64,000 nucleotides of DNA. Origin: Phallusia mammillata (lineage: Eukaryota). Shown here one piece after another: positions 24,682-32,685 of this stretch (position 1 is its first letter; every line of letters begins with the position of its first letter). The translations under genes were made by a program, and so were the position numbers. The notes below the pieces were generated by a model that saw nothing but the letters and a program-made list of their open reading frames with translations, was not told the DNA's origin and did not search any database. The DNA is taken from contig OZ281495.1 of NCBI GenBank assembly GCA_965637545.1, positions 22,506,001-22,570,000 on the forward strand. Reading direction: 5' to 3'.

Positions 24682-27471
24682 TGTGTTTTCAAAAGCTGTT
24701 GTTCAATAAATTGTCATGACCACAATGCCAATCCTTTGCGTTGAAATTGGGTGAAAATCAAAAATTAAGTTCAAGACATTTCATGCTTTTACTACAATCT
24801 GAAAACTTCAACGCCTTCATCGAAGTTAAAACACATCGCATAAAACAAATTGTTTTGAACAATGACGCAATTAGGCTACGTCAGCATACAACAATCACAA
24901 TTGATTGAAAACCTAAAAATGATAAACTAAACTGTCTTTTCTGACTAAATTACATTTTACGTTTTAACTTGCTTGATGCCACTGAGAACAAAATCGTTCT
25001 TCAACATCTCTCTGCTTCGCACGACATCCGAGTTCTACATTTAGCTTCAACAATGCGCCGAGATTTATTGCCTAAAAGGTTATTGATTCGCAGGTGCGAT
25101 GCGGGACTGATATGGATGTTTACACAGCACCATTTCTGTTGTGTCGGGCGACATGTTGTACCCCCACCACTTCTTTGTCCAGTAGCGCATAAACACGTCC
25201 AAGGCTCGCGACATTTACAAAAATCTCATGATAATGGCTTGCTATCGAGCAAATATCTCGTTGATCCGATTAAGGTCCGTATCAACAACTTATCCGTGCG
25301 AACGTTCTCAATAGCCAACCGCATTTGCCTTCTTAGATCGCCGATGTAATTCGATAATCCTCCACCGAAACGGCGCCTTCACATTGACTTTGCGCACGCA
25401 ATTTCCGAAATCTGCGCCGCCCAACTAAACTAACATACCGCGGGAGCACAATAGCCATTAAGCAAGGCGATAGTGCTCAGGCCTCGACTTCGCTTTGATC
25501 TACCGTCAACCGGCCTAGGGTTTGTATGCTTAGCTTGACCACGCGAGCCCGCGTCTACTGTTGCGGCAATCGACACAATCCTCAGCGAAATTAAAGCACG
25601 GCTCTTCCAGACAGTGAAGGCAATACCTCATTGTCGACGCCGAGAGTTTGTACAACTCCGAGTGTGTTTCTAAGCCCCTTTCACCGGCCTAAAATAGCAC
25701 TCATGGATGACTTTATATCGTAGTTGCTTTTCGCTACAAACGTAAACAGCTCTTCAGTGGCAGGTCACATTCCCAGGGCACCAATGATTTCAAATGGTCT
25801 CTTAAAGTTTTGATAAGTTTAGTAAAACATAATACAAATGATATTAAAGCTTGTCACACCACTGTTCGTGTACCTATTTTCTGACATGCTTGTGTAAAGG
25901 CATAACCTGAAGTTGTTAAAATAGGAACTAATTGCAAAATTTGTATTTTCTAAATAGGCTAAGGCTAATGAAAACCTACAGAGCATAATAGTTCTTTGAA
26001 TAAAAACAAAGCGTGGTCGAAACATGGGAGAATGGGTATTTCAGGAGAAAAAACTTTGTGGGCAGTTGTCTCCGGGCTATAAACAAGACGTTTCCTAATA
26101 CCCATCTCGATCGGCTTTTTTATGCATGTTTATGGGTCAGACACCAGAGATTATTCGCTAGTTTCTGCTAGCTTTGTGAACGTTTAAACGTCTCATATTA
26201 ACATGCCTCTGTTGCGCCACCTTACAGACGGTAAAAAAATTTTCTTCTTTGAAGTAAATCCGAAATGTCACACATCATTTTAAACCTATCATTCAACACC
26301 AGAAAATATTTTACGTCATCGGATATCGAAAAAGGAAACAAGAACATAGATATAGGCTAATTGAATTTCGCTGACTAAAACGACAAGATTGTTGACGGAC
26401 TGCCTTCGTATACCTGACAGTCCCAGCAAGGCTTTTGGTGACATACGAAGTTCAAACTGGAAATGGTTTTTATGGTCGATAACAGCATTTTGGTTTTCCA
26501 TGTTTGATATAAATAAAAGCCCCTCTAGATGTGATCAGTGATCGTGGGAGGGCCAGAAAATGCCTCGTACAGCAGACTAGCCCACACATTACGTCCATTG
26601 CAGTGTCAGTAAAGCCAGGACCATTGGACTACGTTGTGAAGTGGTTAAAATCGCCATAGCAATGTAACTAACGTTTTTTGGTAGCTGATAAAGTACAATA
26701 TTTGTTATCTCAAATGTTCCCTTTTGCCCCAACGCGCCGGCGCCCAAGCTCACCCAATAATATATTCTATGGTCAAGTGACCAGCTCGAGTTGCGGGGAT
26801 AAAAATCCTTCGCAAAAAACTCGAGTGATGGCTACCTTTTTTCGGAGATAAATTGGCATGTACTGTATTTATGTGTCAAAACTTGACGAACTTCAGTCAA
26901 ACTTTTGAGAAAAGGCTAGTTTTCACCGCCAATTCACAATTTGTTGAAAGTGTGTGTTGAGTTACTTAGCAATTACCAACCTCATTTCCACAAAGTATAA
27001 CTCTCTTTTACTGCGTTACGCTTGCTGTTGTAGCGGTTACAACACTATTGTGCAATGTTTATGAAAACGATTGCATGTTATTTCGCAATAACGTTTCACA
27101 CCACGAAATGGAAATGTTTACCCTCATTTCTGCATAGACTAATGTTTATATTTCCGTTTCTATGGTAGTCATAAGTTATTTTCAGCCATTTTTCGGGTTC
27201 CAGAAAGATCTAACAGTAAACATAGTGTTTATTCCCTTATGACACATATTTCCGTCGGTATTTGCAATGTTTCCGCAGTTGTGATTCGTATTAGAACGCG
27301 TCGTTTCCACCCTGTGAAAAAGCATATGGTGTTCACCAAAAGGCGCTATGGCACTATAAATTACATGGCTACCTTAAAATAAATAATATAAGTAATATGA
27401 GAAAAAGAATTCGTACACCGGCCAAGGTTTCACATTGTTATATAAGCGGAGACTTTGATGTTTTCGCCGTT

Positions 27472-27535
27472 CTATTTGTGGGTTCTATTTGTGGGTTCTA
27501 TTTGTGGGTTCTATTTGTGGATTCTATTTGTTCCT
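27472..27535. repeat. 13-bp minisatellite (ttctatttgtggg) inside the LTR
   Basis: About five units in the 5'LTR and three in the 3'LTR (~31145-31183). This accounts for 26 of the 40-bp LTR length difference; a 14-bp indel accounts for the rest. Confidence 0.88.
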
Positions 27536-28423
27536 GCTATTTCCACCGGGAAAGCTATTTTGGGATTTCTATTTTTTGGCTTCTATTTTTATCCCATGTG
27601 GATGTGTAGCTGATTTGAACGTTCGCCTTTAACGTTATTCAAGAATACAAAGAAAGAAGAGACATATGTGTGGCTGTTAATCAGTCAGCTGTTATTGAGA
27701 TGCAAAGATCAGACTCACCAAACAATTTGCAATGAACATCATAGTTCACACCGTAGCGGTCCTTCACAGGCCGCCATTGAGGCAGGCATCGCTACAAAGT
27801 GGTGCCCACGAGTTACTACACACCTTCCGAGCTCGCTTCCAGCGCAGGCAGATGTCACTTCAAATTGGTACCTTACGAGCAAGGTTCGGACAGCACGTTC
27901 AAAGTGATGCCTCGAACAGTTCGAACAAGACGTCATTTGGACAAGGGTTACTTGCAGATAGGACTTTTCAAGCACAACCAGACATTTTAGTTATGTGCAA
28001 CTCCACCGACATCCCAATGGAATCAGAAACAAAAGAGGAGGAACAACTCGACTACCAAGATCACGGAAATGGCATTCACGCGATCGCGCCGACCAACATC
28101 TTTTCCTCTGTTAAGTAAGTGCGTGTGAAATCTGCATTTGACAATTTTCTGTGTTGTAAAATATATATTTTATTCGCTTAATAACACTTTTCAAAATAAA
28201 TTAGTTATGTTTATTCATCGATGTATGTTGCATGTTAAGCTGCGTGCGTGTATATAACTTATAATTCAGTAAAAATTGATAATTTTTTGCTAGTGTCAAA
28301 CTGTAAACGTGTATGTGCTTCGATGTGTCTCACCATCAAATAATTTATGTTTCACGTTTCATGTCAACGGTTTTGTCAAGCCGGAAACGTTCTTGTTTTA
28401 CTACTAACGCTCCATGATATGTA

Positions 28424-30278: not shown

Positions 30279-30329
30279 ACTAAAAAAAAAAAAAATATAT
30301 ATATATATATAGGCTATATATATATATAT
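30279..30329. repeat. poly-A / (TA)n microsatellite inside the LTR element
   Basis: Run of A followed by (TA)n. Confidence 0.85.
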
Positions 30330-32685
30330 CATAGCTATCAAACCGCATTATAAATCGATAAAACATTCTTGTGTGCAATTTTGTCAAATTATGTTTCGCC
30401 AGTCTATACTTATACATTATATTCTCTGCTTTCACCTTTGTCTTGACGACGTGTATTGTTTTCCTTACGATATTTATTCTAAGAGCCGAAGAGTCAAACC
30501 CTTATTGACAAGATATATAATTATTATGTTCATTTTCCGTCTTTAATTGTGCATATTTTCCCAACGTATAAATCCCCACGTGACAGCGCCCACCGCCATC
30601 TATTGACCAATTTCGCTTGTCGCGTGTCGCTAACGACCATTAATATTGATAAAATGTGTTTTTCATTCAAACACATTGTGCATCCTTTTTGGGGGGGAGC
30701 TTTTGTAGCGGTTACAACACTATTGTGCAATGTTTATGAAAACGATTGCATGTTATTTCGCAATAACGTTTCACACCACGAAATGGAAATGTTTACCCTC
30801 ATTTCTGCATAGACTAATGTTTATATTTCCGTTTCTATGGTAGTCATAAGTTATTTTCAGCCATTTTTCGGGTTCCAGAAAGATCTAACAGTAAACATAG
30901 TGTTTATTCCCTTATGACACATATTTCCGTCGGTATTTGCAATGTTTCCGCAGTTGTGATTCGTATTAGAACGCGTCGTTTCCACCCTGTGAAAAAGCAT
31001 ATGGTGTTCACCAAAAGGCGCTATGGCACTATAAATTACATGGCTACCTTAAAATAAATAATATAAGTAATATGAGAAAAAGAATTCGTACACCGGTCAA
31101 GGTTTCACATTGTTATATAAGCGGAGACTTTGATGTTTTCGCCGTTCTATTTGTGGGTTCTATTTGTGGATTCTATTTGTTCCTGCTATTTCCACCGGGA
31201 AAGCTATTTTGGGATTTCTATTTTTATCCCATGTGGATGTGTAGCTGATTTGAACGTTCGCCTTTAACGTTATTCAAGAATACAAAGAAAGAAGAGACAT
31301 ATGTGTGGCTGTTAATCAGTCAGCTGTTATTGAGATGCAAAGATCAGACTCACCAAACAATTTGCAATGAACATCATAGTTTACATTGTAGCCGCCATTC
31401 ACAAGTCGTCATCGAGGCAGGCGTTTCTACACTGTATATGTACCTCAACTGAAAAAAGTAATACCAGTGGTGGGATTCAAATTTTTTGTCAGCCGGTCCT
31501 ATCACAAAAGTCATATTTTCCAGCTGAATCCCATCACTGAGTAAAACCCATTTGAAGTGTTTCACTTTCAAAAGAATAAGGATTTAACTTGCTTATCCAT
31601 AGGACAGAAATCTGGTCTGAACAAAACATTATCAAACAACAATACTTGACCAACTGTTTCTTACACAAACTCTGTTTGAATGGAGAGACCTTACCATCAT
31701 TAAACAGCCAGAATAAATCTGCTTTCATATTCTTTGTGTTCCTGTAAAGCATTAACCAGCACAGTTTTTGCAACACTTTTATAAAATAAGGCAGAATTTA
31801 CACAAATAAAAGAACACAATCAGAAAAAACAGCAATCAAAGAAAGGCGACAACATATGAACTTGTAAAGCACAAGCTGTGGTGCTGAACCTGTTTCGTCT
31901 CATTATGTTATATACATTGGTGCTTAAAAACAGTTTCATTCCACAGCTGTTTGACACACAACTTACAAAGCATCCAAAGATCCCATAAATTGCCAAGGCA
32001 GTGGTGGCAAGCATTGGTAAGACTAAAAGAAAATTTTGCGATTATTTACCCATGATCTTTAAGACAAGCGGCATATGACTAAGTTATCATATACCGTACC
32101 TAGGATGTTGTTTTTTTTCTTCAAATTGATGCTGTCCGGCAACACCTGTGAAAATACAACTACACAACCAATTAAAATTCAATTCTTTAATGAGTAATTA
32201 TTGCATGTCGATACGTTTTATACTTCACTGTTTACATATTTTCAGATGGTGACAGGACAACCAAAAGATCCAGAAACCTGTTGCAAAAAGATTTGTGTAA
32301 AATTTGACCCCTTTTTAGGAAGTAGGAATGACAAAACATTGCTTTACATTTTTCACAAAGTGCTATCAGTGTAAGATTTAAATGTAACCACAATAAAGTA
32401 CAACTTAAACCGACATTTTAATGAAGAAATTAGATTTCGCCTGATGACTCATCCATGGGCGGAAGAAGATTTGAACCTAACAAAATAAAATATAGCATAA
32501 TACAGGAAACCCTACCCAAAAGCCTACAAATGCAATGCTTGCCACATGTTTGCCACAATAATAATAATGAAATATAAACTTATAACGAAAGAGTTTGGTG
32601 TTAGTTTACTATACAGTAGCATTGGTAGCAAGACCGACCATCTGTCCTTTAGTGAAGTTCCTCAAAAAATCTCCTTGTAGATATT

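Follow-up and report, generated by a model that had tools for sequence, protein, structure and literature searches.

The 64,000-nucleotide window analyzed here, taken from the ascidian Phallusia mammillata (GenBank assembly GCA_965637545.1, contig OZ281495.1, positions 22,506,001 to 22,570,000), contains a long terminal repeat (LTR) retrotransposon insertion at window positions 27029 to 31431, on the plus strand like all of the element's features described below unless stated otherwise. Its two direct LTRs, a 5' copy of 768 nt (27029 to 27796) and a 3' copy of 728 nt (30704 to 31431), both have TG...CA ends, and the 4-bp target site duplication (TSD) CTGT flanks the element on both sides (27025 to 27028 and 31432 to 31435). 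A 3-nt spacer and a primer binding site (PBS)-like site with a TGG start at 27800 (together 27797 to 27811) follow the 5' LTR, and a G-rich polypurine tract (PPT; 30691 to 30699) with a 4-nt spacer (together 30691 to 30703) precedes the 3' LTR. The initial annotation, made from the letters of this DNA, had reported these signals, and they were found as claimed. A six-frame Pfam scan of the interior (27797 to 30703, with stops read as X) returned Glycoprotein_B and one chance match (E 0.046) and nothing for gag, protease, reverse transcriptase, RNase H, or integrase, in line with the annotated lack of a recognizable gag or pol. The Glycoprotein_B match falls in a segment of 314 open codons (28829 to 29773) assigned by Pfam, PDB profile, and fold to the C-terminal half of a class III envelope protein (env) of the glycoprotein B (gB) type, so that the earlier description of a nonautonomous LTR element with a class III env segment holds. 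We consider it highly probable that the element is an internally deleted LTR copy that keeps only this C-terminal half, likely derived from an ascidian Ty3/gypsy errantivirus and copied in trans.

The env segment, referred to here as the env stub, comprises a central helix, a domain IV-like beta region, a hydrophobic anchor (residues 241 to 259), and a tail, and it matched the Pfam family PF00606 at an E value of 3.3e-9 (37 bits). A single-sequence search of the PDB gave weak gB matches (best E 0.0067); with a profile of 27 aligned sequences, 54 of the 57 matches obtained at E up to 1 were herpes gB (best E 3.8e-17). When an AlphaFold model of the stub (mean pLDDT 74.6, pTM 0.41) was compared with the PDB by Foldseek, gB was the only protein among the matches listed, isolated domain IV included (best E 6.8e-9), and in a fold search of a viral library herpes gB came first (E 6e-12), with 19 gB or unnamed matches ahead of other families. 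Judged by its sequence and its predicted fold, the stub is a segment of a class III, gB-type glycoprotein. It shares with herpesvirus gB the central helix, motifs of the P-x-x-x-L-S, G-D, and R-P-L types, and the domain IV-like beta region, but it differs in its low identity (about 20 to 25%), its lack of domains I and II, and its retroelement context.

The comparison with gB and chuvirus G that the initial annotation had proposed thus returned a class III match, with gB far above chuvirus-like G, and the same searches bear on the suggestion that the insertion belongs to BEL/Pao and took its glycoprotein from a chuvirus, as the mosquito element Anakin did. In the lower ranks of the viral-library search there were entomopox, chuvirus-like, and borna-like glycoproteins (E 4e-6 to 1e-2); the chuvirus-like and borna-like matches, which speak for such an origin, lay between E 3e-5 and 1e-2, those to chuvirus-like proteins at E 3e-4 or weaker. 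Defective Anakin copies with LTRs also exist (PMC7642597). However, herpes gB led the ranking together with the 19 matches mentioned above, and relatives of the stub resemble the tunicate Ty3/gypsy env group by eye. The 4-bp TSD likewise points away from BEL/Pao, whose members usually have 5 to 6 bp, 4 bp being typical of many gypsy lineages. A BEL/Pao element is therefore not favored, and we regard it as extremely unlikely. The Phallusia copy is like Anakin in being an LTR element with a class III-type glycoprotein, and defective Anakin copies are described as common; it is unlike Anakin, a BEL/Pao element with a chuvirus glycoprotein, in superfamily and host and in that its env is nearer to herpes gB by fold (PMC7642597).

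The env frame is far from complete. The initial annotation had described a gB-like frame at 28424 to 29773 with two stops; the stops are there, at 28820 and 28826, but only the part from 28829 to 29773 is gB-like. In a comparison with a profile built from the N-terminal halves of the relatives, the 134 codons upstream of 28829 scored -0.9 bits, and the 93 additional gB residues at the start of P0003, a database protein labeled Phallusia mammillata in UniRef, scored 38 bits (E 8e-14); the stops therefore lie outside env. They are accordingly not read as nonsense mutations of env and stand in non-env sequence ahead of a deletion junction. A representative search for relatives gave 79 matches, 26 of which were aligned, and in nine aligned full-length relatives (602 to 639 aa) 290 to 335 residues with 11 to 15 cysteines precede the position of the stub's first residue. 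A profile of the relatives' N-terminal part found nothing of this half in the six frames of the element, no signal peptide was found in the stub (28829 to 29773), and the first in-frame methionine of the stub is residue 61, beyond the central helix. Measured against a functional class III fusogen, the N-terminal part with domain I is missing, and the central helix, domain IV, and the C-terminal anchor are present; in gB-type env proteins the fusion loops lie in domain I (PMC13524379). By this alignment about half of the env protein is absent, the fusion-loop domain included, and the locus is predicted to make no fusogen, because domain I with the fusion loops is missing and the first in-frame methionine comes only at residue 61. 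The env is a remnant and not cargo, presumably a passenger left by the deletion.

Other members of the family are more complete or carry the same lesion. P0003 is 96% identical to the env stub, with 65 of 67 and 52 of 52 residues identical on either side of a gap, and its additional gB residues indicate, at the level of sequence, that a copy with a fuller env exists in the family. A second database protein, P0002, agrees with the frame that crosses the env junction at 43 of 50 residues, including the first 20 of 20, which suggests that other copies carry the same env deletion. Among 24 sequencing runs listed, 20 (one organism code, 8 studies) contain the stretch or part of it, and four runs from four studies were examined by means of contigs. 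Contig depth in the interior exceeded that of the flank in run X1 (1334 to 2029 versus about 100), run X3 (99 to 181 versus 7 to 9), and run X12 (400 versus 19 to 28), roughly 11 to 21 times the flank; contig depth is not a copy number and is therefore read only as showing that the family is multicopy, as it is. Contig pieces at 85 to 90% identity represent diverged relatives. Among the best 40 of 263 variant rows, 13 of 18 env variants were synonymous, against an expectation of 22 to 34% (P 1e-5 to 1e-3); the copies therefore appear to have diverged while env was under constraint, in a lineage that had a selected env. A joint between 28701 and 30652 in a further run, X4, suggests that some copies lack env altogether, and the family resembles a set of deletion derivatives of a parent with a working env.

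These observations bear on the version offered by the initial annotation, in which a recently mobilized element carries env as selected cargo and complements an active infectious family. The frame of 314 codons stays open as far as its stop, the env variants are mostly synonymous, the bodies of the LTRs are nearly identical, and the family is multicopy, all of which would fit such a role. Against it, the signal peptide and domains I and II are absent, the first methionine in frame is residue 61, the joint in X4 suggests copies without env, and no empty insertion site was among the joints listed. The synonymous excess is accounted for by descent from intact copies. An env that lacks about half of its protein, including the domain with the fusion loops, is not intact cargo; the idea of a functional cargo is largely refuted, and we consider this version very unlikely.

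The LTR pair proved to be less uniform than the single substitution plus indels first noticed by eye. The substitutions number 14, and there are two indels, of 26 and 14 nt. No difference occurs within the first 390 bases, and a single substitution falls in the first ~680 aligned bases, the other 13 lying in the last 50 (27747 to 27791), a clustering with a binomial P of about 1e-14 under uniform spread. The U5 tip of the 5' LTR (tip A; 27747 to 27796) can form a hairpin of -18.4 kcal/mol (z -3.1 for 27740 to 27800), and the U5 end of the 3' LTR (tip B; 31382 to 31431) is unlike tip A at the 13 positions. CpG decay was rejected as the cause of these differences, as only 2 of the 13 are CpG-type changes. 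We also rejected the idea that the hairpin is kept in both tips by compensatory change: tip B has a folding energy of -9.7 kcal/mol, with one compensated pair against three broken ones, and when tip A was given 13 random changes, 66% of the 2000 resulting controls folded as well as or better than tip B. In all four runs there were U5 ends like tip B that continued into the PBS side, and the tips are therefore family variants and not local decay.

The LTR pair is thus probably a mosaic. The two unlike U5 tips likely reflect recombination, be it a transfer of plus-strand strong-stop DNA from one template to another that differs from it or a later gene conversion from another copy; either event would produce this tip pattern. 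Transfer between two templates has reportedly been described for yeast Ty. An assembly artefact, merging different copies at the LTR tips or at the env junction, would be another source of such patterns, and the repetitive nature of the family and the fact that no contig spans the element leave room for it. However, the TSD is equal on both sides, which speaks against a simple join of two loci, the window contains no Ns, the same env junction occurs in P0002, and tip-B-like ends occur in other copies; we therefore judge an artefact to be quite improbable. If the two tips record recombination, as is likely, the identity of the LTRs does not date the insertion, and the locus serves as a warning that LTR-to-LTR identity can mislead where the two ends are mosaic.

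The recent mobilization claimed in the initial annotation is likewise not shown by the flanks. Contigs that run from the left flank into the LTR continue to 27057 with no break at 27028 in all four runs, and no empty-site joint was found among the 15 of 22 joints listed. Contigs drop rare variants and the animals are possibly related, so that presence in four of four runs does not prove fixation. The left-junction data give no support for a fresh, polymorphic insertion, and the mosaic LTR pair is no clock.

Our preferred explanation, an internally deleted derivative of an errantivirus copied in trans, can be put as a series of steps. The LTR promoter would have driven an RNA that kept the cis signals (U5 end, PBS, and PPT); this RNA would have been packaged and reverse transcribed in trans by a gag-pol partner; the integrase step would have left the 4-bp duplication; and the env stub would have been carried along as a passenger left by the deletion. 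Several points weigh against this explanation. The PF00606 score of 37 bits is below the curated 43-bit cutoff, and the Foldseek TM scores are low (0.31 to 0.36 by query; up to 0.55 against isolated domain IV). The 18 env variants were picked by support from the rows used, in contigs that are possibly mosaic, and a mosaic assembly may also underlie P0002. No gag-pol-env partner with the LTR of this element was found in scans of viral and metagenome contigs, and no relative of 551 to 2000 aa was seen among 4603 candidates, which is weak evidence. Likeness to the published env sequences was judged by eye, and membership in Ty3/gypsy is drawn from two features only, the env likeness and the 4-bp TSD. 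Finally, standard reverse transcription gives two identical LTRs (PMC6894440), and the tip mismatch needs an extra event beyond it.

The closest published counterparts come from three ascidian species, in which Chary and Hayashi (eLife 2026; PMC13524379) list nine Ty3/gypsy elements whose env is of the gB type. These elements (Amen_1-2, Atur_1, and Clep_1,2,4,5,7,8) carry an env of the HSV/gB type in cysteine group C3; in the same screen P. mammillata gave two pol and seven env hits with a blank annotation cell, and it is not represented among the nine elements (PMC13524379). The Phallusia element resembles these errantiviruses in its ascidian host, its gB-type env, and a TGG-type PBS close to the 5' LTR, its LTRs of 728 to 768 nt compare with about 270 to 790 nt in the published elements, and the full-length env relatives and the proteins P0010, P0016, and P0003 resemble the tunicate C3 domain I-II sequences by eye (PMC13524379). 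Unlike them, the Phallusia copy has neither gag nor pol and only half of env, and its PBS differs from all six that are listed (PMC13524379). The features shared with gB-type Ty3/gypsy elements are an env homologous to herpes gB and a 4-bp TSD; with no intact gag, pol, or env open reading frame (ORF), we file the copy as a defective derivative and not as an intact errantivirus. The Tor elements of Oikopleura are likewise tunicate LTR elements with env, expressed either through splicing from the LTR or with an internal promoter (PMC4402516); the listed appendicularian element has an F-type env (PMC13524379), unlike the defective gB-type env of Phallusia. An enveloped class III LTR family in a marine chordate, which the initial annotation had presented as its implication, is thus already published for three ascidian species (PMC13524379). 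Our search of the literature, with most subscription papers outside it, found no paper on a retrotransposon of Phallusia mammillata and no description of this family. The locus adds, in what is likely a fourth ascidian species and one that is a laboratory model, a gB-type enveloped family that appears to be decaying through a deletion series.

The element is also crossed by antisense joints. In X4, at least six joints skip sequence with the features of canonical minus-strand GT-AG introns with pyrimidine tracts, two in the single-copy flank and four inside the element; joints were listed for one of the four runs, and that X4 is RNA is a guess. The interior introns measure 417 nt inside env (29027 to 29443), 403 nt (29600 to 30002), 700 nt from the 3' LTR into the noncoding region (30097 to 30796), and 367 nt within the LTR (30987 to 31353; the 5' LTR fits equally). 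Those in the flank lie at 31449 to 31694, with an acceptor 17 nt outside the right end of the element, and at 32023 to 32099, downstream of the nearest minus-strand gene, an intronless CREBZF-like bZIP ORF of 319 aa (32686 to 33645) that points towards the element, which is antisense to it. Joint depth was 43 to 337 in the interior versus 29 to 61 in the flank; one bin of X4 had no cover (30123 to 30339) and is not counted as a finding. The joint at 29600 to 30002 reproduces the altered C termini of P0002 and P0003, and that at 29027 to 29443 the 139-residue gap of P0003; the splicing is therefore recorded in database proteins too. As P0003 comes from a different copy, the antisense splicing is a trait of the family and may be noise. 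An antisense protein was considered on the model of HBZ, the antisense protein of HTLV, and rejected, as no ORF in the joined chain exceeds 64 codons. In the simplest view, read-through RNA of the host or the LTR would be spliced at cryptic sites.

A more elaborate reading is that the insertion has been retained by the host as an antisense trap: the CREBZF-like gene would have a transcript extended at its 3' end, the insertion, antisense within it, would be exonized, and PIWI-interacting RNAs (piRNAs) made from the transcript would silence the enveloped family. Consistent with this, the two flank joints run up to an acceptor that lies 17 nt short of the LTR, four further joints are found inside the element, the marks of one interior joint are found in two database proteins and those of another also in P0003, the joined antisense chain holds no ORF over 64 codons, and the left junction is present in all four runs from four studies. 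There is also a precedent: in Drosophila, antisense Tirant insertions in host 3' untranslated regions (UTRs) set off piRNA production, with KoRV-A of the koala cited as a parallel (PMC13226689). The Phallusia copy resembles these in being an env-bearing LTR element antisense just downstream of a host gene, with a chimeric antisense RNA likely; it differs in the multiple splicing of its RNA and in being a deletion derivative, and a piRNA role is suggested by analogy only (PMC13226689). Other findings tell against the trap. Contigs cannot place flank and interior joints on one molecule, the interior joints are deeper than those of the flank and P0003 stems from a copy with a fuller env, so that other copies contribute, the joints come from the one run taken to be RNA by guess, and cryptic splicing of read-through RNA needs no function. 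We consider the trap unlikely, although it is compatible with the deletion-derivative explanation preferred above; in this reading the tip mismatch would be a fossil of plus-strand transfer between two different templates. Should piRNAs be produced from the spliced antisense RNA, retroviral immunity by way of 3' UTR traps would extend to an invertebrate chordate. Of the features of this locus, the mosaic tips of the LTRs and the antisense splicing most deserve attention.

The remaining features of the element are minor. The 5' LTR contains TATA-like boxes at 27355 and 27439 and 13-nt tandem units near 27469 to 27530. The spacers between LTR and PBS (27797 to 27799, 3 nt) and between PPT and LTR (30700 to 30703, 4 nt) prolong the terminal inverted repeat, which suggests that the integrase of the element may trim beyond the usual two bases. 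A short leader ORF of 88 codons from its ATG (27852 to 28118) is possibly a gag or pol stub; it has no homologue at 57 to 184 aa, no Pfam family, and no Atlas match of at least 0.9. Of the three family variants listed in it, two affect third codon positions, and there are 27 gap letters in one contig in this region, a weak hint that it may be coding. The AT-rich spacer and pre-env region that follows (28119 to 28828) is not gB-like in any frame and contains an 84-nt tandem duplication (28622 to 28785). On the sense strand, a GTAAGT resembling a splice donor (28115) and an exact TACTAAC (28402) enclose AT-rich sequence, and this stretch (28115 to 28453) is a possible env or leader intron; no sense joint for it was among the 15 of 22 joints listed. 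Between the env stub and the PPT, an AT-rich noncoding region (29774 to 30690; 32% GC) includes an A/TA microsatellite near 30280 to 30330. The window contains no second copy of the element and no tRNA genes.

In the surroundings, a very high-copy short repeat lies 30 nt to the right of the element (31463 to 31524), with a bin depth about 2000 times that of the flank in three runs; it is probably a fragment of a miniature inverted-repeat transposable element (MITE) or a short interspersed element (SINE). A right-flank contig of X12 has 384 unrelated letters before 31465, and the right side near this position may be polymorphic. The CREBZF-like ORF contains a 93-nt tandem duplication (33188 to 33373). 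To the left, on the plus strand, exons of an ion channel gene extend from about 9700 to 23500, with a Pfam Ion_trans match at 12299 to 12778; by eye this is probably a voltage-gated sodium or calcium channel. A 277-codon ORF with no Pfam match follows on the minus strand (23751 to 24584), and X4 contains an unspliced contig (24805 to 27057) between this ORF and the element. A dispersed repeat of 120 to 240 nt is present in three copies with 84 to 89% identity, at 5587 to 5820, 38055 to 38177, and 58848 to 59088.

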